Assembly (NCBI RefSeq): GCF_024298765.1 | Contig: NZ_CP101210.1 | Length of the DNA: 64,000 nucleotides | Strand: one strand, 5' to 3' | Origin: Escherichia coli | GTDB lineage: Bacteria; Pseudomonadota; Gammaproteobacteria; Enterobacterales; Enterobacteriaceae | Shown here: in pieces, positions 2,871 to 52,800 of the stretch | Layout of the letters: each line of letters opens with the position of its first letter | How positions within the stretch are numbered: the first letter of the stretch is position 1 | Translations under genes and position numbers: made by a program | The notes under the pieces: generated by a model | Seen by the model: the letters and a program-made list of their open reading frames with translations, nothing else | What the model was told of the DNA's origin: nothing | Database searches by the model: none

Positions 2871-2888
2871 CTGCGAGGTGCAGGGCAA

Positions 2889-4547
<1,659 letters not shown>

Positions 4548-25252: not shown

Positions 25253-25361
25253 AGGGAAACTCAGGACACGTTATCCTTTGGTCACTCTCTGTGTAGTGGA
25301 TCGGTAATTCAGGACACCTCATTTTCACTGTTAATGTTAAAAAGTGAAAATGAGGTGATGC

Positions 25362-26161
25362 ATGATCAAAACTCGTCGGACTAAACGTACCTTTTCCCCG
25401 GAGTTCAAGCTTGAAGCTATCGAACAGGTGGTTAAATACCAGCGTGATGTCAGAGAAGTCGCGCTGGCACTCGAGCTCAACCCTGACCATTTGCGTAAAT
25501 AGATACGGTTGTATAAGCAGGAACTTCAGGGTATTGAGCCCGCTGGTAATGCTATTACTCCTGAACAACGCTAAATTAAGCAGCTTAAAGCGCAGATAAA
25601 GCGCCCTGAGATGGAAAAAGAAATACTAAAGCAGGCTGCCGTGCTGATGAGCGAAATCCCCGGGGAAACTGTCGCGCTAATCACACAGCTGAAAGCAAAG
25701 TGGCCAGTGCGGGTTCTTTGTCATTTATTCGGTATTCACCGTAGCATTTATTACGCGCAGGTGAAGCGTCCTGTTAATGTGCAAAGAATTGAATTACGAA
25801 GTCGGGTGAGGGCTGTCCATGCTCTCAGTCGTGGCGCAGTCGGTAGCCGGGCAATCAGTCAGATGTTGCGCCATAGTGGCGTTGATGCAGGCCGGTGGCT
25901 GGCACGACGACTGATGCGGGAATGCGGGCTGACAAGTCGACAGCCAGTTAAACATCACTACCGGGTAAACGAAGACAAAAGTCCGCCATTGCCAAATTTA
26001 CTGAACCGGCAATTTCACCCCGCCGCACCAAACCGCGTCTGGTGCGGCAACATCAGTTTTATTCGCCTGCAGGACAAATGGTGTTATCTCGCACTCGTTG
26101 TTGATTTATATTCACGGCGGATTATCGGTTCAGCCCTCTCATTAACCGCTGATGCTGAGTT
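25362..26161 (+). mobile_element. IS3-family element fragment (orfA with two in-frame stops; orfB truncated by IS66 insertion)
   Basis: orfA-like MIKTRRTKRTFSPEFKLEAIEQVVKYQRDV...LNPDHLRK*; orfB-like 25611..26165 (WPVRVLCHLFGIHRSIYY...) stops at the IS66-family terminus at 26162. Confidence 0.6.
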
Positions 26162-26198
26162 GTAAGCGTACAGCGAGGGCCGTATTGACGGGGATGTG

Positions 26199-27461
26199 TT
26201 ATTCAGCTGGCAGTGCTATGCGCCACGGAAGCAGTTCGCTGACCCGGTTGACCGGCCAGTCTGCTATGACGCCAAGCACATGGCGAAGGTAACTTTCTGG
26301 ATCCACGTCATTCAGTTTGCACGTCCCTATCAGGCTGTACAGTAGCGCTCCCCGCTCACCACCATGGCCAGAGCCGAAGAACAGGAAGTTTTTACGACCC
26401 AGACTTACCGCCCGCAGGGCATTTTCAGCGATGTTGTTGTCGATTTCCACCCAGCCATCGTTCGCATAGTACGTCAGTGCCGGCCACTGGTTAAGTGCGT
26501 ACGCGAACGCCTTCGCCAACTCTGAGTGTCGCGACAGGGTCTTCATCTTTTCACGCAACCAGCTTTCCAGGGATTTCAACAGCGGTTTCGTTTTTCGCTG
26601 ACGTTCAGCAAGCCGCTGCTCTGCCGGCATTCCCCTTATATCCGCCTCTATGGCGTACAACTGACCGATCTGCTCCAGGGCTTCTTCCGTCAGTGCTGAC
26701 GGGATGCGGACGTGCACATCGTGGATCTTTCGGCGGGCATGAGCCCAGCAGGCAGCTTCCGTTATCCCACCATTGCGATACAGCTCGTTGAACCCGGCGT
26801 ACGCATCCGCTTGCAGCACACCGCTGAAGCAAGCAAGATGAGTCTGCGGATGGATGCCTTTTCTGTCCGGGCTGTAAGCGAACCACACTGCAGGTGCCAA
26901 CGCTGACCCGGCATTGCGGTCATCACGAACATACGCCCACAACCGCCCGGTCTTCGTCTTCTTATTACCCGGCATCAGTACCTGGACCGGGGTATCATCG
27001 GCATGGAGTTTGCCGTCAGTCATGACATAGCCATGAAGCGCCTCTTCCAGCGGAGACAGCAGCCGGCAGCATGCATCCACCCAGCCCGACAGCAGTGAAC
27101 GGCTCAGCTCCACACCTTGCCGGCCGTATATTTCTGACTGGCGATACAGCGGGGTGTGCTCTGCATACTTCGAGGTCAGCACGCGGGCCAGCAGCCCCGG
27201 TCCGGCGATACCCCGCTCGATGGGCCGCGAAGGTGCAGGTGCCTGCACGATGGCATCGCACTGAGTACAGGCATGTTTTTCCCGTACCGTCCGGATAACC
27301 CGGAAGGCGCTACGCATCAACTCCAGCTGTTCGGCGGTATCCTCGCCCAGATAGCTCAGTGAACCGCCGCAGTTCGGGCAGCACGGCGCCGCAGGCAACA
27401 GTCGCTTTTCGTCACGGGGTAGTGATTCAGGGAACGGCTTACGGATGCGGGTCTGACGCAA
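26199..27461 (-). CDS. tnpC: IS66-family transposase TnpC (C-terminal 420 aa; N-terminal part in another frame)
   Basis: Zn-finger-like CCPNCGG...CTQC and DDE region; N-terminal leucine-zipper part is in ORF 27356..27736, implying a frameshift. Confidence 0.7.
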
Positions 27462-27736
27462 CGGACGCTGTACTGCGGGTCATACACCCTACCAGTCAGC
27501 GTATCGCTCTCTTTCTGAAGCCGGTTCAGATCGGCTTCCATTTGTGCGATACGGCGGGAGACTTTTTCGGAACGACTGCCGAAGTTCATCCGGCGGAGTT
27601 TATCCAGCTGCGCCTGCAGATGGTCTATTTCGCGCTCCCGGTTGCTCAGCTTTTCCTGCAGGGCGTGGATCAGCGCTTCCTGTTCGGCCAGGCGCTGTTT
27701 CAGCAGGAAGATGTCGTCAGAAGAGATGTCGTTCAT
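27356..27736 (-). pseudogene. IS66 TnpC N-terminal segment (frameshifted relative to the C-terminal part)
   Basis: 126-aa ORF with coiled-coil region (LLKQRLAEQEALIHALQEKLSNREREIDHLQAQLDKLRR); overlaps 26199..27461 in a different frame. Confidence 0.6.
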
Positions 27737-27785
27737 AAGCCCGTATTTTACCGGGCTTATTCTGTGACAACCAGGATAAAGAGAT

Positions 27786-28133
27786 TTACAGCATGGTCAG
27801 GGAGGTCAGCAGCCGCTTAGGCTGTCGCCAGTCGATACCTTCCAGCAGCATCGCCAGCTGCGCCTGTGTAAGGAACACTTTGCCATCACGGGCTGACGGC
27901 CAGGCGAAGCGCCCACGCTCCAGCCGTTTGGTCAGGAGGCACAGTCCGTCACCGGTGGACCACAGCAGTTTAACCTGACTGCCGCTGCGGCCCCGGAAAA
28001 TGAAAACATGGCCGGACATGGGATCGTCTTTCAGCGCCGTCTGTACTTTCGCAGCCAGGCCGTTGAAGCCATTTCTCATATCGGTGATACCGGCAACCAG
28101 CCAAATTTTGGTCCCGGAAGGTAACGGGATCAT
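27786..28133 (-). CDS. tnpB: IS66-family Orf2 (TnpB)
   Basis: 115-aa ORF MIPLPSGTKIWLVAGITDMRNGFNGLAAKV; canonical IS66 Orf2. Confidence 0.85.
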   Translation of the reverse strand: MIPLPSGTKIWLVAGITDMRNGFNGLAAKVQTALKDDPMSGHVFIFRGRSGSQVKLLWSTGDGLCLLTKRLERGRFAWPSARDGKVFLTQAQLAMLLEGIDWRQPKRLLTSLTML

Positions 28134-28531
28134 CGCTTCAGTTCCTGTATCAGCAGAGTCAGGAGCTTTTCGCTGACATTGCCATTGAAGCGGAGCGTCC
28201 CGTGCCGGAACGTTACCTCACAGCTGATACTGAGGGTTTCCGGGTCCTCTGCGAGCGATTCTGGCTGTTCGGCAGCTGCATCGAGAGTCACAGGAAGTAG
28301 CTGGGGGCTCTCTGAAGAAGGTAATATCAGCTTTCCCTCGCGCCATTGTTGTCGCCATTTGAACAACAGATTGGCGTTAATGCCATTTTCAAGAGCAAGT
28401 TTTGAGATGTATATCCCGGGTTCACAGGAGGCAGCAACGAGCTGCTGTTTAAATTCGGGAGGATAATTAGGGCAGCCTTTTCGCCTGCCGGGAGTCACAT
28501 TTTTCTGCATATCTGACACTTTGGTTCCCAC
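28130..28531 (-). CDS. tnpA: IS66-family Orf1 (TnpA)
   Basis: 133-aa ORF overlapping tnpB by 4 nt; typical IS66 Orf1. Confidence 0.8.
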   Translation of the reverse strand: MGTKVSDMQKNVTPGRRKGCPNYPPEFKQQLVAASCEPGIYISKLALENGINANLLFKWRQQWREGKLILPSSESPQLLPVTLDAAAEQPESLAEDPETLSISCEVTFRHGTLRFNGNVSEKLLTLLIQELKR

Positions 28532-28587
28532 TACTTATTTGAAGTGCGCCCCAATAGTTAGACACCAGATCTGTAACTGAGGAGCGT

Positions 28588-28943
28588 ATGAGCAAATTTT
28601 CATTAGAATTCAAAAGGGAAGTATCAGAAAAATACCTGGAAGGTGAGCTGAGTTTGAAGTCTGTTGGAAAAATGTACAATATTGACCCCAGCACGGTAAG
28701 GAAATGGGCTTATGTTTACCGTAAGCACGGATTAAAAACACTGACTGGGCAAAAAAGACGTTATGACGATAACTTCAGATTGAATGTGGTCAGAGATGTT
28801 ATTGATAATTCTCTTTCTATAAGGGAAGCTGCAGTGAAGTATGGGATCCCTGCTTTTAACACCATATCCAAATGGATTAAAAAATACAGTGAGGTTGATT
28901 TTTCGATGAAGGGACAAAAGGAAGATTTGAGGCCGAAAACTCC
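28588..28943 (+). pseudogene. HTH transposase-like OrfA gene, 3-prime end replaced by IS1
   Basis: 125-aa ORF with two HTH-like segments; last codons are encoded by the IS1 terminal repeat beginning at 28944. Confidence 0.5.
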
Positions 28944-28998
28944 GGTGATGCTGCCAACTTACTGATTTAGTGTATGATGGTGTTTTTGAGGTGCTCCA

Positions 28999-29274
28999 GT
29001 GGCTTCTGTTTCTATCAGCTGTCCCTCCTGTTCAGCTACTGACGGGGTGGTGCGTAACGGCAAAAGCACCGCCGGACATCAGCGCTATCTCTGCTCTCAC
29101 TGCCGTAAAACATGGCAACTGCAGTTCACTTACACCGCTTCTCAACCCGGTACGCACCAGAAAATCATTGATATGGCCATGAATGGCGTTGGATGCCGGG
29201 CAACAGCCCGCATTATGGGCGTTGGCCTCAACACGATTTTACGTCACTTAAAAAACTCAGGCCGCAGTCGGTAA
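28999..29274 (+). CDS. insA: IS1 InsA
   Basis: 91-aa [46 protein letters not shown]... Confidence 0.95.
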
Positions 29275-29696
29275 CCTCGCGCATACAGCCGGGCAGTGAT
29301 GTGATTGTCTGCGCTGAAATGGACGAACAGTGGGGCTACGTCGGTGCTAAATCACGTCAGCGATGGCTGTTTTACGCGTATGACAGGATACGGAGGACGG
29401 TTGTGGCGCACGTCTTCGGTGAACGCACTCTGGCCACACTGGAGCGTCTTCTGAGCCTGCTGTCGGCCTTTGAGGTCGTGGTATAGATGACGGATGGCTG
29501 GCCGCTGTATGAATCACGCCTGAAGGGAAAGCTGCACGTTATCAGCAAGCGTTACACTCAGCGCATTGAGCGACATAATCTGAATCTGAGACAACATCTG
29601 GCAAGGCTGGGACGGAAGTTACTGTCGTTCTCAAAATCGGTGGAGTTGCATGACAAGGTCATCGGGCATTATCTGAACATAAAACACTATCAGTAA
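29193..29696 (+). pseudogene. insB: IS1 insB with internal stop (TAG at 29484..29486)
   Basis: insB reading frame split into 29193..29486 and 29487..29696; canonical ...FEVVMWMTDGW... reads ...FEVVV*MTDGW... here. Confidence 0.8.
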
Positions 29697-29837
29697 GTTG
29701 GAGTCATTACCTCCTCCCGAACTCAAAGCTATCATACAGATAATTACTGGTTAACCCTATATAGGGCATTTTAAAGTGTTGTGATCTTACCCAGCAATAG
29801 TGGACACGCGGCTAAGTGAGTAAACTCTCAGTCAGAG

Positions 29838-30143
29838 GTGACTCACAAGACAAAACAGTTTCAACCAGTAAAAAAACGTAAACAGCATTCGCCTGAATTT
29901 CTCAGTGAAGCCCTGAAACTTGCTGAACGCATCGGTGTTGCTGCCGCAGCCCGTGAACTCAGCCTGTATGAATCACAGCTCTATGCGTGGCGCAGCAAAC
30001 TGCAGCAACAAATGAGTTCGTCAGAGCGTGAAAGTGAACTGGCCGCTGAAAATGCCCGCCTGAAGCGGCAACTGGCGGAGCAGGCAGAGGAACTGGCTAT
30101 CCTCCAAAAGGCCGCGACATACTTTGCGAATCGTCTGAAATGA
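29838..30143 (+). CDS. IS3 OrfA (GTG start)
   Basis: 101-aa HTH/leucine-zipper ORF ...[42 protein letters not shown]... Confidence 0.85.
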
Positions 30144-31006
30144 AGTATGTCTTTATTGAAAAACATCAGGCTGAGTTCAGCATCAAAGCAATGTGCCGCG
30201 TGCTCCGGGTGGCCCGCAGCGGCTGGTATACGTGGTGTCAGCGGCGGACAAGGATAAGCACGCGTCAGCAGTTCCGCCAACACTGCGACAGCGTTGTCCT
30301 CGCGGCTTTTACCCGGTCAAAACAGCGTTACGGTGCCCCACGCCTGACGGATGAACTGCGTGCTCAGGGTTACCCCTTTAACGTAAAAACCGTGGCGGCA
30401 AGCCTGCGCCGTCAGGGACTGAGGGCAAAGGCCTCCCGGAAGTTCAGCCCGGTCAGCTACCGCGCACACGGCCTGCCTGTGTCAGAAAATCTGTTGGAGC
30501 AGGATTTTTACGCCAGTGGCCCGAACCAGAAGTGGGCAGGAGACATCACGTACTTACGTACAGATGAAGGCTGGCTGTATCTGGCAGTGGTCATTGACCT
30601 GTGGTCACGTGCCGTTATTGGCTGGTCAATGTCGCCACGCATGACGGCGCAACTGGCCTGCGATGCCCTGCAGATGGCGCTGTGGCGGCGTAAGAGGCCC
30701 CGGAACGTTATCGTTCACACGGACCGTGGAGGCCAGTACTGTTCAGCAGATTATCAGGCGCAACTGAAGCGGCATAATCTGCGTGGAAGTATGAGCGCAA
30801 AAGGTTGCTGCTACGATAATGCCTGCGTGGAAAGCTTCTTTCATTCGCTGAAAGTGGAATGTATCCATGGAGAACACTTTATCAGCCGGGAAATAATGCG
30901 GGCAACGGTGTTTAATTATATCGAATGTGATTACAATCGGTGGCGGCGGCACAGTTGGTGTGGCGGCCTCAGTCCGGAACAATTTGAAAACCAGAACCTC
31001 GCTTAG
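30140..31006 (+). CDS. IS3 OrfB (integrase core, DDE)
   Basis: 288-aa ORF with rve-type catalytic core (WAGDITYL...[15 protein letters not shown]...[10 protein letters not shown]...). Confidence 0.85.
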
Positions 31007-31036
31007 GCCTGTGTCCATATTACGTGGGTAGGATCA

Positions 31037-31685
31037 CTAAGCCAGGAATTAAGTCATTTAAAGATATTTCAAATTCACTGGCAATCGTATCTAATCCTTC
31101 CTTATCAATAGATTCAAGCCATAAATTATAATCAATAGGAAGAAGCAACGGATGAGTAAAGTTCAATCTATTTACTAAAGATGATTTAGTATACTCATCA
31201 TTACTTAGCTCTCCAATAAATTCATTATTTATAGAAACAGCATAGTTCTTTATATATGCTGCTCTGTGCAATTGTGACCATGCGATTTTAAACTCTACAT
31301 AAACCTTTTCAGTTTCATCTGCAATGTCTTTCATTTTTATAAAATGAATATCGAAAATATCACCAAGTTCTTCTAAATATGTTTTATATTCTACACCTAT
31401 TGTTTGTTCAGGATCGAAACCGATACCAATAGTAATTACATTATTCAGATCCCCATTATGGACTAGAGATCTAAATCCATCTATGCGCCTGTTCCCCATA
31501 GCTTCTAAATATATAGGATCACACTGCTCACGGTCTAATATTTGTTGAAGATAAAATAATGCAATTAAAATAGTAGTCTTGCCCGCGCTGTTTGGCCCCA
31601 ATAGTAATGTTACAGGTGCAAAATCAATTTCCTGCCGCTCTCTAACAGATCTGAAATTTTCAAGTACAAGTTTAGTTAATTTCAT
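31037..31685 (-). pseudogene. AAA/ABC-type ATPase gene (OLD/Abi-like N-terminus) truncated at 3-prime end by IS3
   Basis: N-terminus MKLTKLVLENFRSVRERQEIDFAPVTLLLGPNSAGKTT (Walker A); ORF runs into the IS3 terminus after about 215 codons. Confidence 0.65.
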
Positions 31686-31693
31686 AATGAACC

Positions 31694-32800
31694 TTACATG
31701 AAATATTTATTCGATAGGTTTGATGCTAAAAGTTGAAGTTGCATTGCGCTTTTATCATAAATGCTTAGTCCTTTTTTTATTTTTTTATAAATAATCTCAT
31801 ACTCATCTTGTAGATGCTTAGGTGGGATTAATATCTCTATATTCTGCAATTCCTGTGCATTAATATTAGCCATGCCAACAATACTTTTACACATATTCAT
31901 CAATGTGATTTTGCCATGGATGGAATTAAGATACCCTGAAATATAGTAGTTATTTCCGATAGAATTAGGTCTAACGCGGATTAAATATCCAGCAAATGCC
32001 ATAGGCCTGTCTTCTTCATACACAGCTGTTTTACCAACAAGTTCCTTACTGTTAGTACGATTGAAAAGAAGATCGCCTTCTTTAACCAAATATTTATCCT
32101 TTTCTTTTACACTGAGATCAAGATATTTTAAATCTGTAAAATCCCACCTACCTTGATATGTTATATTACCCATCCGTAATATAGGATATTCACCAGAATC
32201 AATAGAGGCTTTTGCTGAAGTTCCATAATTTACTGAATCAACCAAGTCGCGAATCGTTCCTTTCGGGAAACGATGTATGTTGTTTGCAGGAGTTCCAAAC
32301 ATCTCTAGAAACTTAGCCCGCAAAAAATCATCAGCCAGTTTGATGGCTTGTTCGCGTTTTTGGCGTATACCCTCAGCTTTATCGAGAAGATCCACAATTC
32401 GTTTCTGCTCTTCAAAAGGTGGTAATTTAATAAATGTATCATAGAGATCGTCTCTATTTAATCCAGGAATACTTGTGGTAATCGTTTTCTTAGTGAGATC
32501 AATTCCGCTCAGAATATAAAACAAGTATCGGAGATCTAACTTATTATTATCTTTGATCTCAACGTAATAAGCAGTATCAATGATCCAACCTCCGTCAGGA
32601 GCCCAGGTAATAGCACCAACGCTGCCTTTGCGACCAATAATTATCGTGGGATAGCTGCAAAGCGTTTTATCGTGGTTGCCGACAATTCCTGAACTACCAA
32701 AAACATGGACACTTCCATTCGATACTCGCTGATCAGCTTTTAATGCTTTTCCGTAGTGAACATTAATAACATCCCCTAACTTCACCATCGCCGAACTCAC
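31694..32800 (-). CDS. hsdS: type I restriction-modification specificity subunit HsdS
   Basis: 368-aa ORF overlapping hsdM stop by 4 nt; two target-recognition-domain-like halves; operon position. Confidence 0.8.
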   Translation of the reverse strand: MSSAMVKLGDVINVHYGKALKADQRVSNGSVHVFGSSGIVGNHDKTLCSYPTIIIGRKGSVGAITWAPDGGWIIDTAYYVEIKDNNKLDLRYLFYILSGIDLTKKTITTSIPGLNRDDLYDTFIKLPPFEEQKRIVDLLDKAEGIRQKREQAIKLADDFLRAKFLEMFGTPANNIHRFPKGTIRDLVDSVNYGTSAKASIDSGEYPILRMGNITYQGRWDFTDLKYLDLSVKEKDKYLVKEGDLLFNRTNSKELVGKTAVYEEDRPMAFAGYLIRVRPNSIGNNYYISGYLNSIHGKITLMNMCKSIVGMANINAQELQNIEILIPPKHLQDEYEIIYKKIKKGLSIYDKSAMQLQLLASNLSNKYFM

Positions 32801-37911: not shown

Positions 37912-38004
37912 TCATCGCCTTATGTCGTGGATACAACAGCATTTCTGGAAAGAATATCACACTAATTTGGCCGACGAAGTGAGCCGGAAAGGGCGGAATT
38001 ACCA

Positions 38005-38337
38005 TTAATTCTCATATTTAAAGTCGATGTTTATTTTGAGTGTTTCAATATTCACAGTGACTTCGCAACCATGCCAGAATGGCTTTTCTTGTGATTTAAA
38101 GTTATCCACAAACAAATTTCTTAGTTCCACCAAAAGATCTAAAAGTCTTTCACTGGCATCTGCGGTTTCAGTGATCCAATGTTGATTGCCCTGTTTATCT
38201 ACATAGTCATAAGTAAACTCACCACAGTCGCTTTCCGGTTCTAACTTTGCACACAGAATGATTTTGACTGCATCACTAGGAGTGATCGATAGCAACACCG
38301 AACCAATGTCATTATAAATATCCTGATCAGAACGCAT
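38005..38337 (-). CDS. cdiI: putative CdiI immunity protein for the adjacent CdiA-CT toxin
   Basis: 110-aa ORF whose ATG overlaps the cdiA stop (TAATG); position immediately downstream of a VENN-delimited CdiA-CT. Confidence 0.6.
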   Translation of the reverse strand: MRSDQDIYNDIGSVLLSITPSDAVKIILCAKLEPESDCGEFTYDYVDKQGNQHWITETADASERLLDLLVELRNLFVDNFKSQEKPFWHGCEVTVNIETLKINIDFKYEN

Positions 38338-41300
38338 TATTTACCTCCGGGTGCATTGTTAAATACTTTTTCAATCGGGCGACCTCCATCTATCGAATAT
38401 ACTACTTTAAATTTAGCAGGTCTGACACTATCCCCAATATACGATGGCTGAATGTTGACCTTAACCTCTTTTCCTTCACCCAATGCTTTTGCCCAAGTAT
38501 TTTCCATCTGCTTCCAGGCTCCTTTGTTCAGATTTCCATCCATTGGAACAAGGTTCAATTTTTCACCAGGACCATTAAAAATACTGGCTATTAAATGACC
38601 ACCCTCATCTCCATCAAGGCCACACTTACCTGCTTTACATTGTTGATAGCCATTTCTATCCTTTACATTAGGACTAAGAGTTGCTTCAACCTGGCTTGGC
38701 CTTGCCTGAGCATCAGTTTTATAAATTTTATCACCATCTACATGATAAACTTTATTCGGCTGTGGGTTATTTAGCTCTTTGCTCCAGTTCCCTTTACCAC
38801 CTGAGTCTAGCATCAGCTTTTCAAGTGACTCCGCACTGATTTTCTGACCTGTCTGTTTTTCAACAGCCATTAGAGCCTTCAACTCTGACAACTCGCTGGC
38901 AGACATTTTACCAACCGCCGCTACTGTCAGGCCCGCTGGAAGAGCATCGCCAGCGACCATTTCCGCAACCCAGATACTAACTTCATTTGCACACAGCACA
39001 GTATTCGCACCACAGGCACTGACTGCTGCCTGGGCGGCTGCAATTGCTTCCGGAGTCAGAGCAATCACTACCCCACCTGTAGCCCCCCCAACAAGCGCTG
39101 CTGCAATCGCTTTGTTTACAGCCTCACCGCGTTTACATTCAGCCCCGCCAGGGTTAGTCGAGCAGGACGCAATATCTTTGCCATGCTCCTGCACGAACTT
39201 GGTCTGAGTGTCTTCATTACCACCCAGCAGGTTATTCTCAACAACATTCTTCCCAGCAGCAGCTCCGGTAGCCACACCCGCAGTATTCCCACCTGCAACA
39301 CCACCCGCCATACCTGCTGAGATACTCGCCAGCGTACTTAGCGTCTGCTTCTGGTCCTCGGTCAGCTTCGACAGGTCTTTCTCATCCGGATATAAAACCT
39401 TCGCGATTGCACCTGCGATAAGTTCACCGCTCACCGCACCGACTGAACCTGCTGCGGCATTATTTCCCTGAAGAGCCGCAGTCACACCGCCGAGAATGGC
39501 ATGAGCAATGGCTTTCGCTGCATCGTTATCATTAATTCCAGCATTGTGCCCTATGAAGTTTGCCAGTTCCGGTGCAGAAGCTCCGGCCAGAGCACCCGCT
39601 AAATTCCCCCCAGCCAGTCCCTGAAGCGCGGCTGTCGCGGCCTGGATACCCCGCTGCATATCGCTACCGGTACCATACTTTTCCTGTTCCTTTTTGTATT
39701 CCGGCGTATCACGCAGTTTTGCCAGATATGCCTGCCGCTGTTCTTCCGTCGTATCCGCCGGAACAGGCCCATATTTATCCTGCGCAGCCTTCAACGCATT
39801 CAGTTCACCCTGCGTCCGCGCGATATCCGCCACCTGACTGCCTATGTCACTGATAAGCCCCACTGTCTGCAGACGCCTCTGCTCTTTCTCCTTGTCAAAT
39901 ATCGGGCTGATACTGTCGTTGGCGTGTTCCGGGTCACGGCTCAGGTTCGCCAGATTCTGCTTCTGATTGTCCCTGTCCCGGATGGTGATAGTGCCTTCTG
40001 CCACTGCGGCCTGAGTCGTTCCTTCCGCATGTCCGCTGTGACCTCCGGCGGATATCATGCCACCCGGCATGTTACCCTGAAATTTATCCCCGAAGCTGCC
40101 ACCACCGCTCAGACTGATTCCACTGTGACTGACTTTATAATCCGCTTCGTTGTGAAGGTCACTGAACCCCAGCGTTCCGGTATCCAGGTGGTTTTTATCC
40201 GGTGTGGCAGTGGAGGCAATCACCGCACCATCCAGTTGGGTATGTTTACCCACTGTGATGTCGAAGCCGCCGTCACCGGCAAACATTCCGGTTTGTTCAG
40301 CAACGGAGTCAAAGCGGCTCTTCATCTTATCCCGGGAGGCAGCGATGTAACCTGAGCCGGTCATGGAGCCAAAGGTAAAACTGCCGCCGGCAGCCACGCT
40401 GGTCTGTTTACTGTCGTACTTACTGGTGTCCTGCTGGCTGCTTATCAGCAGGTCGTGGCCCACATCGGCGATAATCCTGTTGCCGTTGACCTGAGCACCG
40501 TTCAGTACCGTATCCCGACCACTGTTGATGGTGACGGTTTTACCGCTGTCTATTGTGGTTTCAGTCCACTCAGTACCGTTACCTTTCTCGCTGCCTTTTG
40601 CCGCATTAACGCTGGCAAAGACACTGATACCGGCACCGTTACCACCGGCACCGATACTGACACCCACGCCACCGCCACTGCTGCTGTTCCTGCCCGTTGT
40701 TTTTTGTGTGTTTGCCGCGCCACTCAACAGAACATCATTCGCAGCATCCAGGTTTGTGTTACCACCGGCCTTAAGCTGGCTTCCGGCAATCACAATATCT
40801 CCGCGGTTATCGCCCCTGTTTTTACCGGTTGCGACAACAGACAGATTATTCCCGGCATTCAGCGTACTGCCGGATACTGTGTCACTTTCAGAATGTTGTT
40901 GTGATTTCGATTTCTGGGTGGTGAGCGACAGGCTGACTCCCATCGCATTCGGGTCACCGGTTGCGGAGGCCATTGCCGCAGCCTGTCCGGCCTGCACACC
41001 AGACAGCGCTGTCTTTGTAGCCTGCAGGGTTTTCAGACGGCTGTCACTGCTCTCCTTCGTCTCCTGTGCACTGGTGACCGCATTATTGATGGCACTGCCC
41101 ACTGTGCCGGAAAGGGCAACCGTCAGCCCGCTTTTCTTCTGCTCAAATTTTTCGTCCACAGTACGACGGTCATGCCCCGGGTCAACCACCACACTGTCAC
41201 CGGTAATGCTGATATCCCGGTTCGCAATCACATCCGAACCGCTGATATGAGCCTGTTTGCCCGCGGTAATACTGACATTACCGGCAGTGGAGCCGATGGT

Positions 41301-41801
41301 ACTGGCACTCTGACTCTGCGTTGTCCCGGCCTCGCGGCGGTCGTGCGTTGTCTTACTGCTGCCAATGGTGAAGCCAATACCGCCGGTACCCATCAGACCG
41401 GATTTCTTCGTTTCCTTAAAGCGCCAGGACGTATCTGTACTGGTGGCAGCAAGAACATCAACATGGTTACCCGCCGCCAGTGACACATCCCGGTCAGCCA
41501 CCACATCCGAACCCTCTACCGTCAGGTTATCACCGGCGTTAACGGTCACGCGGTTCCCCGACAGCAGGGAGCCTGCTTCACGGGAGGCACTGTTCTCACT
41601 GATGGTGTGGGTGGTTTTCTTACTGAGAAAACCTCCGCTTTTTTTCTTCGTTTCCAGATAGTGATAGTCACTTTCTGTCGCCGTGGTCAGGGCGACATCA
41701 CGACCGGCATTCACACTGATATTGCCGGTTGCGGTAACGGATGACGCAACAGCGGTGATACGCATACTGAAGAGCATTCCGTATAAAGATTCAGCTGGCA
41801 A
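38337..41801 (-). CDS. cdiA: 5-prime-truncated contact-dependent inhibition toxin CdiA fragment (FHA-repeat region, pretoxin VENN, variable CT toxin domain)
   Basis: 1154-aa ORF rich in Gly/Ser/Thr beta-helical repeats; VENN motif ([11 protein letters not shown]) encoded at 39231..39242; about 298-aa CT after VENN; no TPS domain or cdiB upstream. Confidence 0.8.
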
Positions 41802-43584: not shown

Positions 43585-44271
43585 ATGGAAATAACAAAAA
43601 ATAAAAATGCAACTATAAAAAAACAGTCATCAGCCGGCTGCTTTTCAATGTTTACTTTATCATTTTCCATTACCTTTATTCCTGCATTTCTTACAAACAG
43701 GCAGGAACTTATATCCAGGGGGCTTCTTGTTCCAGCATTATTTCTTGCTGAATTTCTAATTCTTGTTCCACTGTATTTTATTTTCTTCCGAAAAAGAGAA
43801 GGATTAGGAAGAGGTTCTTTTCGACTGGATGTTTTTTTTACTCTTTTCTCTTTAATAATGATTATTCAGTTATTTGTCCCTTATCTGCTGGCAGTGAGGA
43901 AAACGGAAGAATGGATGATCTCGCAAATGTCTTTTTCCGGGGCCATTTTATGGATTAATATATTTTCTTCCGTACTTCTTGTTCCTGTATATGAAGAGAT
44001 TGTATTTCGAGGGTGTCTTTTTAACTCTTTTAAATTCTGGTTTAATGACAATATTTACATCTCTGCTATTGTAACATCAGTCATATTTTCTGCATTACAT
44101 CTACAATATACTGACTTTCGTACATTTTTGATGCTCTTTCTGATATCGTTAGTTCTTATCAGTGCAAAAATAAAGTCGAATGGCCTGTTAATGCCCATAT
44201 TACTTCACATGGCGATGAATGCAGTCATAACAGGAATACAATATACGTTACAATATCACATAACAGTCTGA
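43585..44271 (+). CDS. CPBP-family (CAAX protease/Abi) intramembrane protein, MceF/McmM-like microcin accessory protein
   Basis: 228-aa polytopic ORF with CPBP motifs EEIVFRG, FSALH and HMAMN; such genes accompany class II bacteriocin/microcin loci. Confidence 0.7.
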   Translation: MEITKNKNATIKKQSSAGCFSMFTLSFSITFIPAFLTNRQELISRGLLVPALFLAEFLILVPLYFIFFRKREGLGRGSFRLDVFFTLFSLIMIIQLFVPYLLAVRKTEEWMISQMSFSGAILWINIFSSVLLVPVYEEIVFRGCLFNSFKFWFNDNIYISAIVTSVIFSALHLQYTDFRTFLMLFLISLVLISAKIKSNGLLMPILLHMAMNAVITGIQYTLQYHITV

Positions 44272-45266: not shown

Positions 45267-47369
45267 CTAATTTGTAATTCTAAAAATCCGATCAACTGTT
45301 CTTAAAGTTGTCTCTCTATGTGCAATAATCACCCGGGTGATATTCATCTTTTTTATAGCAGCATTCACGAAACGTTCACTTTCTGTATCAAGAGAACTTG
45401 TAGCCTCATCCATAAATAATATTCCAGGTTTCCGGTATAAAGCTCGGGCAATGAATATACGCTGTTTTTGACCGCCGGAAAGACCTTCCCCCAGTTCACC
45501 TATTAACGTTTCATACCCCATTGGCATTTTCATTATCACATCATGAATATGACTTGCTCTGGCACATTCTGTCATCCATTCGTCGTCTGTTTCTTCTGCA
45601 AACCCACAGATATTTTCACGAATTGATCCTGAAAATAGCCGGTCGTCCTGCATAACACAGGCTATCATACGGTGATAATTATTTATTCCAAGTTGACGTA
45701 TATCCGTGCCATTAACCAGTACTTTTCCACTATCTGGTTCAAACAGTCCACATAATACTTTCATTAATGTGGTTTTTCCGGCACCGGAGGCACCAGTTAT
45801 AGCCACACTTTCTCCCGGAGCCACAGACAAATTCAGACCACTGAATACCTGTGCTGACTGGCTGTCATACCGGTAGCTTAAATCAGTGGTTTCCAGTGAA
45901 ACCGGGCTCATGTCAGCAACGATTTCAATTTCCGGTTTCTTTTCTTCCTTTTCATGTAGTGCAATATCTGCAATGCGCTCATTATGCAGACTCATTATTC
46001 TCAGTTGAAGAAGAAAACTGGTCAGCGAAGCAACCCGATCCGAAAACTGCCCACGAAAAGAACCAAATGCCACAAACATCCCTATTGTCATCTGATTATC
46101 GATCACAAGGCTTGCACCCAGCCATAAAATCGCCACCTGATCACAGGCGGCAACAAAAGTATTTATCCCCCCGAAGAGCAAATCCATCCTGGTTAACTTA
46201 ATACCTGAATTGATCGCATCTATTTTCAGGTTAAGCCAGTGTGTTCCCCGAATCCCAGCCATACCCTGGATTTTTACCGTGGCAATACCATACAGGCTTT
46301 CCATAAAATAGGAGCTGGCCCGGGCCCCCCTGACAAGAGTTTCTTCCGATATTTGCCGGTAATAGCCGTATGTCACCAGACGAATAAGAACGTAAACCAT
46401 GGTAAAACCGAGCACTATCCAGGTAAGATATCCTCCATATAACAGCATCATCACAAAAACACCCACAACCATAATACTGTCCATGATTGCCCCAACAACA
46501 CAGGTGGTAAAGGTGGCCCTCAAAGTGTCAAGGGAGCCAAAACGCGACTGGATATCACCTAATTTACGGCGTTCAAAAAACGCCAGCGGCAGTCTGAGAA
46601 GATGGTTAAACAGACCCGACTGCCACTGTATATTGATGAGCGTGCTCATAACCAGTGAGGACCATGCACGCAGCATACTCACCGCGGCCCTGAGCAATAT
46701 AAAGAACATCAGGCCAGCAGAAATAAGCGTCAGCAGCCCTCTGTCCCCCGCCGGAATCGCATGATCCATAACCAGCTGAGTTCCCACCGGCATTACCAGA
46801 TTGATTGCTTCAATTACAACTGACAGACAGAAAATTTTCGCCAGTGTTCTTTTAATACCGTAAATACTGTTAATCAGTGAACGGAGACTTATGCGGGTCT
46901 GCTGGGTTTCCGCCAGGAATTCACTTCCGGGCCAGACCTCAAGTGCAATGCCCGTAAAATACCGGCTCATTTCCTCCCGACCGAGATATCTTCTGCCTCT
47001 GGCCGGATCATGCAGTACATAACGGTTACGCTTTACGCTGACCAGCACGACGAAGTGACTGAAATCCCAGTGGAGAATACACGGCATTTTGAGGGCACCA
47101 AGTTCATCCAGCTCCAGTGAAAGAGCCCGGGTGACCATCCCCAGCTGCTCCGCTATTCCATTGATTCCTGCAAGGTTTGCTCCACGGGCCGAGAGATTAA
47201 ACTTCCGGCGAAGAGATATCAGGTCAATATTCTTACCAAAATGACCGCATATCATTGCCAGGCAGGCCAGTCCACATTCAGCGGTCTCCGTCTGATGAAT
47301 AACCGGAACACGACGTCGCCAGCGCATATCAAGCTGATTTATAATTTGTCTGAAATTCCCGTTAGTCAT
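45267..47369 (-). CDS. mchF: microcin export ABC transporter with N-terminal C39 peptidase domain (CvaB/MchF family)
   Basis: ORF track 45267..47387; near-identical over long stretches to remembered CvaB ([32 protein letters not shown]...); Walker [10 protein letters not shown], signature LSGGQKQR. Confidence 0.9.
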
Positions 47370-48636
47370 TGAGCGGTCCTGTTGCACTGTGTTTCATGTC
47401 ATAGAAAGGAGAAAGCATCCACTGGTAAATACGCCTTTTTTCCAGAAATAGTGTACTTTCGGCTTTCATTCCATTTTCCAGAGGGAGGTATTTTTCGTCA
47501 TATCTGATAATCTGCTTTTCAGGCATCGCAATGACTTTATACCAGGGAACAGAGTCGCCCGGCGTATTCTGTGGTGCTCCCTTATAGGTCAACATTTCCT
47601 GTGTTGACGCAGGAGTCCTGGATATAGTTTTAACCGTAGCAGAGAACTGCCCAAATTTTTCTGCCGGAAAGGCTTCATAACGAATATTCACTTTGTCACC
47701 AGCCGAAATATAAGGAACAGCATCATTCGGGACCCAGAGAATAAGATAATAGTTTTCAATGTTCTCAGGAATAACCTGCAGAAGGCTGTCTCCGGTATTG
47801 ACCATTTGCCCGACAGTGACACTCAAGGAGTCAACTTTCCCGTCAGTCAACGCCCGGATAATGATTTCGCCCTCCACATCAGTGTTAACCAGTTCTTTCT
47901 GTAACTCATACCGTTGCAGTTCCATCTGGTAGATACGGTTATCAAAATCTGCAGCCTGAGTCTGAATCTGACTCTCCAGAGTGGTTATCTGCAGGGCATT
48001 CTGTTCGTTCTGTCCGCTCAGGCTGAGAAGATTGTTTTGTTGCTGATAATATAATGCCACCTGGTTAGTTAACTGATCTTTATTAATCAGCCCTTTTGCC
48101 TGATAGTTTCTGTAATTCTCCATATTGTTTTTCATTATTTTTATCCCTTCCTCTGCACGCTGTATAATATCTGATGAGCGACGAAACGCATCTGTGTATT
48201 GCAGGCGTTGTTTTTCCAGGGTATCTAGCGTTATTTTTTTACTTTCTTCCAGACGGGAAATAATGTTGTCCACACGAACCAACTGGTTTTCTATATCCCG
48301 ACGATGATTATCAGTGACAATACCACTACGTGTACTTTTACTGATGTCAATCAGATAAACAGGATCCCCTTTTTTTATCAACTGTCCTTCATGAACAAAC
48401 TGCCTGACAACAAATCCCTGTACACCTGAATATATATTGACAGCTCTTGGCCAGGTTGTGACCTCACCACTGACATTAACACGGCGGCTATAGGTACCAA
48501 CAATAATGAACATCAGAAATGCCGTAATAAACACTATGCTTCCCAGCATGATTAACCATAGTGGTATTCCGGGAAGTAATATTGCCCGTCCCTGCCACTT
48601 CATTTTTCTGTTTTCTAAAGCATCCTGACGAAACAA
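47362..48636 (-). CDS. mchE: microcin secretion membrane-fusion protein (CvaA/MchE, HlyD family)
   Basis: 424-aa ORF; N-terminal TM anchor, coiled-coil region; matches remembered CvaA. Confidence 0.9.
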
Positions 48637-48788
48637 AATAGCTCCTCTTACTCACACTTTTCCTGTAATACCTTCACTGGTTAACCGAAATGCTATAATC
48701 AAAGCCAGAAAATATAGAGTCCTGTTAAAATAGTATCAGCGATGCATTTACCCCGTAATTTACAATTATCTCTGTATCTTCAGAGGTA

Positions 48789-49241
48789 CTACGTTTTATG
48801 CAGCCGCTCAGGGATGTATGTCACAATTTTCTTTCGCCTGCTTAACCATCGTACTTCTCCTTCTCCCCATGGCTGAAGCTGTATGAGATAGTCAATAACT
48901 TTTCGACCAAAGCCTGGTTTACAACAGAAATCCAGAATCCAAATCCTTCCATCTTCATTCCATTCAGACGGATGCAACCTGAATTCTGGATCCCTGAGCA
49001 GGCGCGCTTCTGTATCAGCCTCAAGATATGCCCAGGTAATATACGCCAGTGGAAAACCTCGTGAATCAAACAGGAATTTAATCTGATTATGCTGTATCGC
49101 ATATTCAGTCCAGTATTGAATGGTTAACACCGGATACAGACTGTAATTACGATTGTAGAGCATACAACTGACCGCAAAACCGATCTGTTCATAAACAGTC
49201 CATTCATCTTTTCCTCTGATGTTTTCCCTTATATAAGACAT
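48789..49241 (-). CDS. mchD: microcin maturation accessory protein (MchD/MceI-like)
   Basis: 150-aa ORF between mchE and mchC; assignment by synteny with the H47/E492 systems as remembered. Confidence 0.55.
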   Translation of the reverse strand: MSYIRENIRGKDEWTVYEQIGFAVSCMLYNRNYSLYPVLTIQYWTEYAIQHNQIKFLFDSRGFPLAYITWAYLEADTEARLLRDPEFRLHPSEWNEDGRIWILDFCCKPGFGRKVIDYLIQLQPWGEGEVRWLSRRKKIVTYIPERLHKT

Positions 49242-49266
49242 GATTACTATTTCCCTTATATATTTT

Positions 49267-50817
49267 TTACACTGTGTTTCTTATCGGTTCAAGATATCCA
49301 AATGCATCTCTGGAAAACTTAAGCATAAAATTTTTCATATCAGAAATTGCTTCTTGTAAAAAAAGGGGATCATCGCCATGATTATCCAGCAGGATGGCAA
49401 TTTTTTCGCACATATTCTCTTTCCTCAGCTCTTCCCTGGGTTGCAGCCTTTTCATGGTATGATGTTCAATTTCTTTCAGGAGTAATGAGGCATTTATCTG
49501 ACGTCTGGTACTGCCTTGCGTCAGCCAGTGGATGGCCTGGGAAAAACACTGTTGTGCAACGGTGAAATAAACATCATTCTTGATGCTACTATTCAGTGCC
49601 TGCTTTTGATTATGCCTATGATGGATTAGCGTCACAACCAACTTTTGCAATGGTGAACCATCCTGATTGACAATATCTTGGGCATGTGATTTCTCGCAGT
49701 ATTGATTGAGTAATGCAACAAAACTGTTAACCAGTTCTTTCAATATATCAGGTATCTCTTTTTGTGTTATAAATTCTCCAGGAATACCCAACAGTTCTAG
49801 ATAACAGTAATAACATGCTTCATGAAAAGTTTTCTGAAATATCTCCTCAACCTTCAAACGGGCTGCAAGAGTGAAGTCAGGGTCAAACATATATTTTCCG
49901 ATATACAAGCAGAGATCAGACAGCCCTTGCATAAGTACCATCGGTTCTTTTGCCAGTTCAGCTAATCTTAGTTTATACCCAAAATCAGCTGGGGAATCTC
50001 CCGGAAACAGACAACTGAGTCCGCTAAAATCCATTAATCTGCCATCCATTGCAATATTAGAAGGAGAAGTTGTCAATCTCAGGAAACGTGTTCGACAAAA
50101 TGCCATTTGCCAGGCCTCACGACGTGCCAGTTCACATAACCCCTCAATGCAATAAATCCGGGGATCAGTTCGTGCTTCAGCATCAATTTCTTCCGGTGGT
50201 ACAGGTAGATATCCTGGCAGCTTGTGGATCACAGATCTAACCCGACAGGCATCGTGAATTAACAGACTGGAATACTCCGGTTTTACTTGGAAGTAAGGTG
50301 CCCGTTCAAAATGCGCCGGACGAACAACAGGCTCACGTACCAACAGGGCTCTTCGTGATTTCCTACCGGAGCGCTCAAATGCCTTTTCAGTATAGAGATC
50401 TGTAAGTAAAACCGCCCGAACCCGCACAGCACTATAAGGTAATATTTGAGCCAGTACTTCTCCCCACAAAGCCTCATATATTGCATGAACAGCGCCGAGT
50501 GCACCATTAGAATGACGTTCGTCAGTACCTTCGCCAACCAACGGATTACTTCCTATTCCTTTAACCTGGTAGTTACCATCAAACCCACAACGTGCACCAC
50601 CTCCATTACGCTGAATACCACTGCCACCATAGCGCTCTGCATGGAACACTTTGGCAGAAGCTGTACTGCCAGGATCGATAATATAACTGCAGGCATTTTG
50701 CAGCTCGTCTGGATTTCTGACATCCTCTGCACACCAGATTAATGAGGCCTTGATCTGCCTGGCAGTGAAAGGCACCAGGTTTTCATTCAGTTCAGAAAGT
50801 GAACACTGATGACTCAT
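49267..50817 (-). CDS. mchC: microcin maturation protein (MchC/MceJ-like)
   Basis: 516-aa ORF immediately downstream of mchB; size and position match remembered MchC. Confidence 0.6.
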   Translation of the reverse strand: MSHQCSLSELNENLVPFTARQIKASLIWCAEDVRNPDELQNACSYIIDPGSTASAKVFHAERYGGSGIQRNGGGARCGFDGNYQVKGIGSNPLVGEGTDERHSNGALGAVHAIYEALWGEVLAQILPYSAVRVRAVLLTDLYTEKAFERSGRKSRRALLVREPVVRPAHFERAPYFQVKPEYSSLLIHDACRVRSVIHKLPGYLPVPPEEIDAEARTDPRIYCIEGLCELARREAWQMAFCRTRFLRLTTSPSNIAMDGRLMDFSGLSCLFPGDSPADFGYKLRLAELAKEPMVLMQGLSDLCLYIGKYMFDPDFTLAARLKVEEIFQKTFHEACYYCYLELLGIPGEFITQKEIPDILKELVNSFVALLNQYCEKSHAQDIVNQDGSPLQKLVVTLIHHRHNQKQALNSSIKNDVYFTVAQQCFSQAIHWLTQGSTRRQINASLLLKEIEHHTMKRLQPREELRKENMCEKIAILLDNHGDDPLFLQEAISDMKNFMLKFSRDAFGYLEPIRNTV

Positions 50818-51088: not shown

Positions 51089-51316
51089 TTAGCTACCGCC
51101 ACCAGCAGAAGAACTGGCACTACCACTTCCCACGGTCGAGCCAATTGCTGTTGTCAAACCGGCAGATACGGCTCCAACTACAACCCCAAGTGGACCACCA
51201 GGTATTCCGGCGAGAGCTCCAACAATAGCTGCAGCACCTGCAGCATTAGCTGAAGTCGCTGGCGCACCTCCCGCCCCGGAAATATATCTTAACTGTGATT
51301 CTGTTATTTCTGGCAT
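51089..51316 (-). CDS. mchB: microcin H47 precursor
   Basis: 75-aa ORF M(P)EITESQLRYISGA-GGAPATSANAAGAAAIVGALAGIPGGPLGVVVGAVSAGLTTAIGSTVGSGSASSSAGGGS; core matches remembered MccH47 sequence. Confidence 0.9.
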   Translation of the reverse strand: MPEITESQLRYISGAGGAPATSANAAGAAAIVGALAGIPGGPLGVVVGAVSAGLTTAIGSTVGSGSASSSAGGGS

Positions 51317-51343
51317 ATAAACTGCATATAAACTCCATCATAT

Positions 51344-51553
51344 TTAACTTCCGTTTTTCCAGTCTGACCAGACCAGAATCCTTCGAATCCCATGAATCAG
51401 CTCAATAAAACCAAGAAATATTATAAAGCTTAGAAAAACGTCAACATAAGAATTCCCTTCGCCAACAATCCGAAGGGATGAAAGTGAAACCAATAAGATA
51501 GTAATAGGTAAACTGAATATAGCCGTCAATTGGGACAGTTTTTTATAACTCAT
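51344..51553 (-). CDS. mchI: microcin H47 immunity protein
   Basis: 69-aa hydrophobic ORF immediately upstream of mchB on same strand; size matches MchI. Confidence 0.75.
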   Translation of the reverse strand: MSYKKLSQLTAIFSLPITILLVSLSSLRIVGEGNSYVDVFLSFIIFLGFIELIHGIRRILVWSDWKNGS

Positions 51554-52365: not shown

Positions 52366-52800
52366 ATGTATCTTACGAAAAAGATTATAATAAGTATGAT
52401 GTTTATATTACCATCTGCTGCATTTTCATCAGATCCACCTCCCCTTCAACAATCGTTAGAAAAAACAACCTATTTTTCTATAGGTATGAATGGGTTTATA
52501 GGCTATCAGAGCGAAGGGGAAAAATTATACACACACATTCTTACATTAGATAATCCCGAAGAGATATTTAAAAATATAATAGAAAATAGAAAGTCAACTA
52601 AGGAGTCTAAAATTTATGCTGCTTGTGGGCTATATTATTTAAACGTAGAAAATATAGAGTCATTGTTTAATGAAAATGATAAACAAGAATATATGTCTGT
52701 CTTAAGAGGGGATATTTTAACAAAAATAAAACTGAATGATATTCTGAATTCTGTGATAATAAATGGTTGCAACACCAAATTAATATCTGAACATAAATGA
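52366..52800 (+). CDS. secreted small protein adjacent to microcin-like precursor (possible immunity/accessory protein)
   Basis: 144-aa ORF with Sec signal peptide (MYLTKKIIISMMFILPSAAFS); ends 16 nt before the precursor gene. Confidence 0.45.
   Translation: MYLTKKIIISMMFILPSAAFSSDPPPLQQSLEKTTYFSIGMNGFIGYQSEGEKLYTHILTLDNPEEIFKNIIENRKSTKESKIYAACGLYYLNVENIESLFNENDKQEYMSVLRGDILTKIKLNDILNSVIINGCNTKLISEHK

Follow-up and report, generated by a model that had tools for sequence, protein, structure and literature searches.

The locus described here raises two questions: whether a cdiA gene that has lost its 5' end is a displaced toxin module or what is left of a primary contact-dependent system, and to which family its toxin belongs. 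The strain bearing the locus is Escherichia coli ACN002, to which the window (the whole stretch of DNA analysed, 64,000 nucleotides) is 100% identical.

Layout of the cdiA-cdiI locus

We identified an ORF of 1154 amino acids on the minus strand (41801..38337), counted mechanically from a TTG codon. Only the part from 41759 downwards is truly cdiA; a deletion has joined on the 14 codons with which the ORF opens, and these stem from an unrelated gene upstream. Pfam places Fil_haemagg_2 at residues 68-195 (E=2.5e-11) and 294-468 (E=2.6e-45), PT-VENN at residues 811-860 (E=4e-16; window positions 39222..39371) and Endonuclea_NS_2 at residues 1015-1139 (E=7e-37), matches that we judge to be far beyond chance. 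The retained CdiA body (39243..41759, minus strand) consists of FHA-2 repeats and the pre-toxin domain. In strain CH4793, whose CdiA is intact (3235 aa), the same stretch spans residues 2096-2934; 838 body residues are kept ahead of the VENN motif. This motif (39231..39242, minus strand) lies within the PT-VENN match and marks the point where the conserved body of CdiA gives way to the polymorphic C-terminal region (CT), which has 297 residues after VENN, or 301 if the motif is counted. Over its whole length the cdiA remnant has 100% amino-acid identity to CH4793 CdiA residues 2096-3235, with zero differences.

The intact immunity gene cdiI (38005..38337, minus strand; 110 aa) follows directly. 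Its start codon and the cdiA stop share one base (TAATG), and a GGAGG lies 6 nt upstream of the ATG. The 3' architecture of a CDI locus is present in full: FHA repeats, PT-VENN, a polymorphic CT and an immunity gene directly downstream. What stays is the 3' third of cdiA and a complete immunity gene. PGAP labels the ACN002 cdiA as a pseudogene 'missing N-terminus'. The sequence-only reading had described a cdiA truncated at its 5' end, a CT delimited by VENN and an immunity gene that overlaps the toxin gene, and the ORF, the Pfam matches and the TAATG overlap agree with that description. It had also noted that a TPS domain and cdiB are lacking upstream, which holds: tblastn with CdiB of CH4793 and with CH4793 CdiA residues 1-2095 gave no match anywhere in the 64-kb window. 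An NCBIfam scan returned no family for the CT and none for the upstream 182-aa ORF. We also considered whether ACN002 has a second cdi locus and rejected this for the chromosome, where only one cdiA-like place exists.

Origin of the truncation

The full set of cdiB, a cdiA of 3235 aa and the same cdiI is found in CH4793 and about 27 other genomes, enclosed by the same flanking genes (mchF, CPBP and hypothetical genes on one side, hsdR on the other). The intact cdiB-cdiA-cdiI of CH4793 occupies the same island position, and its 3' end is identical to that of ACN002. When the two loci are compared by blastn, the two flanks are 99.94% identical and abut at a single junction (41759..41760, minus strand), where the junction sequences share a 2-bp TA microhomology. 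Relative to CH4793, ACN002 lacks ~9.38 kb: the greater part of an ECs1377-family gene, a small ORF, cdiB with the native promoter ahead of it, and the first 2095 codons of cdiA. From the general domain order of CdiA, the signal peptide, the TPS domain, FHA-1 and the receptor-binding region would be expected within the lost residues 1-2095. The junction was seen in one of the 5,426 complete genomes, that of ACN002.

The ACN002 locus is thus very probably what is left of a once complete cdiBAI of the E. coli type on the tRNA-Phe genomic island, reduced by a strain-specific deletion that left cdiI intact. The comparison shows that a recent deletion by illegitimate recombination took cdiB and the 5' part of cdiA. 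Alignment to the sister strains indicates that the gene is the island's primary cdiA, cut by the 9.4-kb deletion, rather than a displaced module. An intact cdiBA, which the sequence-only reading had suggested seeking elsewhere in the genome, exists upstream of the CT in the sister genomes; it is absent from the ACN002 chromosome, which has the one cdiA-like place.

The junction itself invites another interpretation. The ATG of the deleted ECs1377-family gene (41763..41765, minus strand) now reads in frame into what is left of cdiA (ATG CGT | ATC ACC ...), giving a potential ORF (41765..38337) of 1142 uninterrupted codons. The deletion could then have made a new gene, a cytoplasmic nuclease fusion of 1142 aa held in check by CdiI, the two acting as a toxin-antitoxin-like addiction pair that stabilises the island. 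If this were true, losing the island or cdiI would be lethal. The in-frame join, the intact ORF and the good translational equipment of cdiI fit such a gene, but a join in frame is expected by chance in one of three cases, and the absence of mutations in the remnant is accounted for by recency, because the non-coding flanks are also 99.94% identical. The fusion ATG has no obvious Shine-Dalgarno sequence upstream, and a simple sigma-70 scan of the minus strand from 37800 to 42800 found no promoter-like site, and fewer sites than in shuffled sequences. The junction occurs in a single genome and therefore gives no sign of selection. We consider a functional fusion gene very unlikely.

Very unlikely, too, is the reading as a classic orphan module, in which the arrival of a new CT/immunity cassette would have shifted an ancestral cdiA-CT/cdiI pair to a place behind a complete cdiBAI, where it is kept as a recombination reservoir. 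The same CT/cdiI pair is a true orphan in strains 1303 and 89-3156, where it starts at or near VENN and adjoins the same hsdR (in 89-3156 it follows a main CT of the tRNase type and a deaminase-like orphan), and 10 of the 42 full-length copies look like orphans by their RefSeq labels. In ACN002, however, neither cdiB nor cdiA lies upstream in the 64-kb window, and 838 residues of CdiA body precede VENN, whereas orphan modules typically begin at the pre-toxin motif (PMC9086364). Both flanks are, moreover, collinear with the intact single-CT locus of CH4793, one clean deletion apart. By these sequence comparisons the orphan interpretation is already contradicted at the ACN002 locus. As far as the orphan modules of Poole et al. 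2011 are described in PMC9086364, they resemble the ACN002 locus in having a non-secretable fragment that lacks a proper start and an intact immunity gene that is probably still protective. They differ in origin, having arisen by displacement, whereas the ACN002 locus lost cdiB and the 5' part of cdiA by deletion; it also lacks an upstream cdiBAI and keeps far more CdiA body (838 aa). Of the earlier suggestion of an 'orphan or remnant' module, the second term stands and the first does not: this is a primary cdiA with a strain-specific 9.4-kb deletion.

That the truncation is an artefact of the ACN002 assembly, for instance a collapse across a repetitive cdiA with the true locus intact, is scarcely credible: cdiA is long and repeat-rich and the junction is known from one assembly, but the left breakpoint lies in the unique, non-repetitive start of the ECs1377-family gene, about 3 kb upstream of cdiA, and the two ends share 2 bp only, whereas repeat collapse would join homologous repeats.

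The toxin and its immunity protein

Whatever remains of its carrier, the CT encoded at the deleted locus is complete. The toxin domain (38340..38759, minus strand) matches Endonuclea_NS_2 (PF13930) over the full length of the model (positions 1-132 of 132, E=7e-37), and phmmer aligns it to the EsaD/EssD chain 8GUO_B (E=1.5e-17, 31-32% identity). CT residue H216 (codon 38597..38595) aligns with EsaD H528 and N239 with N551, and both are invariant in 35 aligned sequences. We predict that His216 is catalytic and that Asn239 binds the metal. An earlier CT alignment was discarded, as entry-domain-only fragments were misplaced in it and no invariant His was left. The alignment used joins entry-domain fragments to nuclease fragments of other homologues, which gives chimeric rows and no inter-domain contact information; with some such rows in its input, the AF2 model of the nuclease part has pLDDT values mostly of 84-98. 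The best Foldseek match of the CT model is EsaD (8GUN; TMt 0.73-0.75, rmsd 1.7-2.6 A), followed by NucA, EndoG, EXOG and EndA. The modelled fold is that of a beta-beta-alpha-metal nuclease.

Profile and model together assign the toxin to Endonuclea_NS_2, as an EsaD/YeeF-type His-Me-finger nuclease. This confirms the tentative His-Me-finger reading of the 'GGHLIAS...NLN' segment, which the PF13930 match, the EsaD match, the invariant H216 and N239 and the fold all favour. It does not confirm the view that the toxin family could not be assigned, since the CT is a full-length PF13930 domain, a homologue of EsaD and YeeF, and the same CT occurs in strain 1303, the example isolate of type 6. The proposed profile and structure checks of the post-VENN residues and of the 110-aa protein did yield families, PF13930 and PF04634. 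The nuclease family is always C-terminal, in proteins of 140-4235 aa, with 3,252 representative clusters at E<=1e-3.

Between VENN and the nuclease lies a cytoplasm-entry domain of about 155 aa (38766..39230, minus strand), helical and hydrophobic, with two Cys pairs. The first ~95 of its residues recur in CTs that bear different toxin domains (PF00545 and PF18451, for example). AF2 predicts helices throughout, with low confidence (pLDDT 33-79); Foldseek gave no informative fold among the 50 matches listed, and a PDB sequence search gave no match for the domain. Entry domains of the MetI-dependent type are marked by homology to CdiA-CT(MHI813) and by the resistance of metI mutants. The primary papers on this entry domain are reportedly Willett 2015 and Bartelli 2019. 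For the CT of strain 1303, and thereby probably for that of ACN002, the MetI-dependent type is reported, Table 2 of PMC11630599 being the sole basis.

That table (Halvorsen et al. 2024, PLoS Genet) lists E. coli CdiA-CT type 6 as an Endonuclease NS_2 (PF13930) DNase with MetI entry and gives isolate 1303 as the example. The type-6 row cites no experimental reference, so the activity and import route of the type rest on annotation and comparison. Strain 1303 carries the CT and cdiI at 99.9% nucleotide identity to those of ACN002, with an identical CdiI (WP_001255836.1), the same adjoining hsdR and the same Pfam family, but its module is a displaced orphan and that of ACN002 the tail of a deleted primary cdiA. 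AJF58502.1 of strain 1303 probably corresponds to the ACN002 CT, given the single 99.9%-identical copy in 1303. The supplements of PMC11630599 give neither a sequence nor an accession for the type-6 CT, our literature search found no paper pairing 'CdiA-CT' with 'Endonuclease_NS_2', and a 2022 review of CDI effectors does not mention the toxin type of the ACN002 CT. There appears to be no dedicated experimental study of the type-6 CdiA-CT/CdiI pair.

CdiI is named 'immunity protein YezG family' in RefSeq (WP_001255836.1). It matches PF04634 (DUF600) at E=8e-6, over model positions 3-112 of 146 only, and TIGR01741 of NCBIfam at E=3.9e-6, below the curated cut-off. A PDB sequence search with CdiI returned nothing, and fold comparison was therefore used. 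The AF2 model (pLDDT 88.5) matches the EsaG chains 8GUO_A and 8GUP_A and the DUF600 protein BH3703 with TMq 0.74-0.77 and a Foldseek probability of 1.00. The six best matches are all DUF600/EsaG chains (E about 1e-6, TMq 0.65-0.77), and the next has E=0.06. By sequence and model, we assign CdiI to the YezG/EsaG-like (PF04634) immunity proteins. Gene adjacency and homology on both sides suggest that it neutralises the cognate nuclease.

EsaD(EssD)/EsaG is a nuclease toxin/immunity pair of the Staphylococcus aureus type VII secretion system (PDB 8GUN, 8GUO and 8GUP; PMC9616950), and metal-dependent DNase activity has been reported for EsaD (PMC9616950). The likeness extends to both partners: the nucleases are homologous (31-32% identity, TM 0.73-0.75), with the catalytic His and Mg-binding Asn conserved, and CdiI has the EsaG/DUF600 fold (23-24% identity, TMq 0.75-0.77). 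Delivery differs, being type V (CdiB/CdiA) and Gram-negative for CDI and by T7SS for EsaD. The ACN002 CT also lacks the 5-residue finger loop of EsaD (RPFKE), which triggers the EsaG-induced unfolding of the toxin (PMC9616950), and CdiI, at 110 aa against about 160 residues in the EsaG chains, is without the C-terminal third. With the finger loop missing from the CT and only part of the YezG model matched by CdiI, the mechanism of neutralisation may differ from that of EsaD-EsaG; CdiI may act on its finger-loop-less nuclease otherwise than by the 'toxin deformation' of EsaG, which splits the beta-sheet of its nuclease.

A second relative is the YeeF-CT/YezG pair of Bacillus subtilis, an LXG polymorphic toxin system in which YeeF-CT is reported as a metal-dependent DNase with an essential conserved His581 (PMC7033585). 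RefSeq and Pfam put CdiI in the YezG-named immunity family, and both toxins have a conserved His; the N-terminal delivery domain (LXG in YeeF) and the host phylum differ, and YeeF is compared here by its published description.

The exact match of toxin and immunity gene to a characterised family, and the presence of cdiB and a full cdiA N-terminus upstream, had been named in advance as findings that would refute the sequence-only reading. In spirit both were encountered: the pair falls in a characterised family, and cdiB and the full N-terminus are found in the sister genomes, not in ACN002.

Present and ancestral working of the locus

In the intact system, the CT would be released by cleavage at VENN and carried by the entry domain across the inner membrane of the target cell, a route reported to be MetI-dependent for this CT type. 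The nuclease would then degrade DNA, with His216 as the general base and Mg2+ held by Asn239. Without CdiB and the TPS domain, the ACN002 remnant would be neither exported nor displayed, and ACN002 could therefore no longer intoxicate its neighbours; we infer that the locus can no longer deliver toxin.

The immunity gene has probably fared better. The same protein, WP_001255836.1, is kept whether the locus is intact, interrupted by an IS, orphaned or reduced by deletion. If cdiI is transcribed, its own strong ribosome-binding site should allow production of a YezG/EsaG-like protein that would bind toxin of this type arriving from outside and neutralise it. An ACN002 cell would thereby remain protected against sister strains in which this CdiA is still in use, and most likely the locus still confers immunity. 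The loss of the native promoter and the lack of a promoter-like site in the sigma-70 scan count against transcription of cdiI, although the scan by itself points in neither direction.

The toxin and immunity types of the ACN002 locus are already catalogued, so the finding is an ordinary one, and its importance beyond good annotation is slight. Upstream of VENN about 2.5 kb of homology is left, through which an incoming cdiBA locus could readily recombine with the remnant. The locus is a clean, datable case of a strain that drops a contact-dependent weapon and keeps the shield. As such it agrees with the view, put forward earlier for orphan cdiI genes (PMC9086364), that an immunity gene persists longer than its toxin.

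Deletion at the cdi locus of ACN002

The longest reading from the TTG at 41801 (41801..38337, minus strand, 1154 codons) encodes two Fil_haemagg_2 stretches (residues 68-195, Pfam E=2.5e-11, and 294-468, E=2.6e-45), a PT-VENN domain (residues 811-860, E=4e-16) and a complete Endonuclea_NS_2 domain (residues 1015-1139, model positions 1-132 of 132, E=7e-37). The VENN motif (39242..39231, minus strand) is followed by 297 residues. The start of the 110-aa immunity gene cdiI (38337..38005, minus strand) shares the last base of the cdiA stop codon (TAATG), with GGAGG 6 nt 5' of its ATG. The FHA repeats, VENN motif, C-terminal toxin region (CT) and overlapping ORF described in the sequence-only reading were thus all found in place. 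The PGAP annotation of strain ACN002, to whose chromosome the cdi region is 100% identical, lists the ORF as a pseudogene "missing N-terminus".

The sister strain CH4793 has an intact locus (ECs1377-family gene, small ORF, cdiB, cdiA of 3235 aa, cdiI) between the same flanking genes as in ACN002 (mchF exporter, CPBP protease, two hypothetical genes, hsdR and hsdM). The strains align in two blocks, with 99.94% identity, that meet at a single point, so ACN002 lacks ~9.38 kb relative to CH4793. The left block stops 7 nt inside the ECs1377-family gene and the right block starts at CdiA codon 2096, placing the junction at 41760/41759, with only TA as microhomology at the breakpoint ends. There are zero amino acid differences between the remnant and CH4793 CdiA 2096-3235, and an 81-nt junction-spanning probe was fully matched in only one of 5,426 complete E. 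coli genomes. Based on these comparisons, we assign the truncation to a recent, strain-specific deletion of the primary cdi locus.

The locus had been described as an orphan or remnant module lacking an upstream cdiB and the CdiA N-terminus. The absences hold, as neither CdiB nor CdiA 1-2095 had a match within the 64-kb window, and remnant is the appropriate term. A displaced orphan is contradicted by these absences and by collinearity with CH4793 apart from one deletion. The ACN002 chromosome has a single cdiA-like place, with no second cdi locus on it.

Through the deletion, the remnant can be read in frame from the ECs1377-family ATG (41765..41763) as a fusion ORF of 1142 codons, for which neither a Shine-Dalgarno sequence nor a promoter-like site was found. 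We place little weight on this join because it is a one-in-three event.

The G+C content falls stepwise along 38005..41759 (FHA-2 and pre-toxin 55.5%, entry domain 53%, nuclease domain 39%, cdiI 37%), which fits an origin of the nuclease/immunity cassette other than that of the CdiA body.

Toxin, immunity protein and entry domain

The last ~140 CT residues match the S. aureus nuclease toxin EsaD/EssD (PDB 8GUO_B, E=1.5e-17), in which H528 is catalytic and N551 binds Mg2+ within a beta-beta-alpha-metal (His-Me) finger (PMC9616950). The CT residues aligned to them, His216 and Asn239 (numbered from the V of VENN), are invariant across 35 aligned homologues. The nuclease domain is confidently modeled by AF2 (pLDDT mostly 84-98). 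The closest PDB fold to the CT model is EsaD 8GUN (TMt 0.73-0.75, rmsd 1.7-2.6 A, 31-32% identity), followed by NucA, EndoG, EXOG and EndA, all His-Me-finger non-specific nucleases. Because alignment, invariant residues and fold matches agree, the tentative earlier reading of the CT end as a His-Me-finger nuclease is correct. The toxin had been left without a family; profile (the E=7e-37 match over the whole model) and predicted structure assign it to PF13930 (Endonuclea_NS_2). Unlike EsaD, which has a 5-residue "finger loop" (RPFKE) after N551, the CT lacks this loop, and in the model a nearly unbroken helix (236-240 and 242-255) takes its place.

An exhaustive search recovered 3,252 representative clusters with PF13930-type nucleases (E<=1e-3). 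The domain is always C-terminal, in host proteins of 140-4235 aa, a placement that we interpret as the signature of a polymorphic-toxin module. In RefSeq records of other strains (e.g., TUM14697, ZYB39, 6883, M22546), several full-length CdiAs ending in this DNase carry the PGAP name "contact-dependent inhibition effector tRNA nuclease", which seems to derive from the conserved CdiA body and is probably wrong as to toxin activity.

CdiI, which has homologues across Enterobacterales (52-99% identity), matches PF04634 (YezG-like, formerly DUF600; E=8e-6) over only model positions 3-112 of 146. Its AF2 model (pLDDT 88.5) has six significant PDB matches (TMq 0.65-0.77), all to the DUF600 protein BH3703 or the S. 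aureus immunity protein EsaG (8GUP_A and 8GUO_A, rmsd 2.2-2.3 A); the next match is five orders of magnitude worse. Given the family profiles and fold matches, both toxin and immunity protein are homologues of EsaD/EsaG. B. subtilis YeeF/YezG is related by family name; the YeeF toxin is a DNase in which a His is essential (PMC7033585).

Between VENN and the nuclease lies an entry domain of ~155 residues that is hydrophobic and helical, with two Cys pairs. Its first ~95 residues also occur in CTs of Serratia, Yersinia, Salmonella and Erwinia with other toxin domains (e.g., PF00545, PF18451), and the PF13930 nuclease also occurs behind other N-terminal domains. By this domain sharing, the CT has the usual modular CdiA-CT build. 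Halvorsen et al. (2024, Table 2) list E. coli toxin "type 6: Endonuclease NS_2 (PF13930), DNase", with entry domains of the MetI type in isolate 1303 and the DtpA/DtpB type in HVH 98 (PMC11630599). Strain 1303 has exactly this CT and cdiI (99.9% nucleotide identity).

The ~45 residues immediately after VENN (VENNLLGG...C...C.RGEAVNKA) are also found at the start of a glycine-rich, hydrophobic Klebsiella pneumoniae CT (118 member sequences) that resembles the ionophore toxins of PMC11630599. The entry region may therefore begin with a short sub-module that is shared independently.

Surrounding island

The same tRNA-Phe island holds what looks like a complete microcin H47 cluster for production, immunity and export (mchI, mchB, acyltransferase, HlyD-family gene and mchF; 51089..51553 and 45267..50817), with mchS3 at about 52366..52800. 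Together with the cdi remnant, this makes two separate bacterial-competition systems, one now disabled. A 107-aa ORF (WP_001390454.1, 44883..45206, plus strand; "hypothetical" in RefSeq) combines a double-glycine-type leader, MRNITTDELALIHGAG, with a Ser-rich tail (SSSSSGS), resembling class IIb siderophore-microcins. Its neighbors are mchF (45267..47387, minus strand) and a CPBP-family intramembrane protease gene (43585..44271, plus strand) of the typical bacteriocin-immunity type. The ORF is possibly a microcin that annotation has missed, and no NCBIfam family covers it.

The end of the island that lies by tRNA-Phe (23042..23117) and the integrase (23315..24577) has an ACN002-specific mosaic structure (23042..31685). 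An AAA-ATPase gene is cut by an IS3-family element (666 bp versus 1623 bp in CH4793). After this gene come fragments of IS1 and IS66, an aminoglycoside-resistance gene, aac(3) (26455..27282), and ISVsa5. Downstream of the cdi remnant, hsdS (32797..31703 region) is 1095 bp versus 1158 bp in CH4793, with a different protein accession; hsdM is 1635 bp in both, and its protein accessions also differ.

Distribution and fate of the module

Among 5,426 complete E. coli genomes, 47 carry the CT/cdiI module, 42 of them in full length. By RefSeq labels, about 28 of these full-length copies lie at the end of an annotated cdiA, 10 stand alone as orphan fragments (e.g., 1303, 89-3156, BH100) and four have other labels. 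Individual genomes show five states: an intact locus (CH4793), cdiA split by ISEc13 (Rb-23), a truncated cdiB in another island (A39), a displaced orphan preceded by a tRNase CT and a deaminase-like orphan (89-3156, 1303), and the ~9.38-kb deletion (ACN002).

We conclude that a CDI locus of an already catalogued toxin/immunity type has undergone ordinary pseudogenisation. The type-6 CdiA-CT/CdiI pair differs from EsaD/EsaG in small structural details. In intact strains, the CT would enter the target via MetI and then degrade DNA. The remnant would not be secreted, because CdiB and all of CdiA residues 1-2095 are missing. CdiI is annotated as intact in all five states (WP_001255836.1 in ACN002, CH4793, Rb-23, 89-3156 and 1303; the variant WP_021515902.1 in A39), which is consistent with immunity outlasting the weapon. 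The cdiB-proximal promoter is lost to cdiI in ACN002; if transcribed, cdiI would still protect against sister strains deploying the CT toxin.
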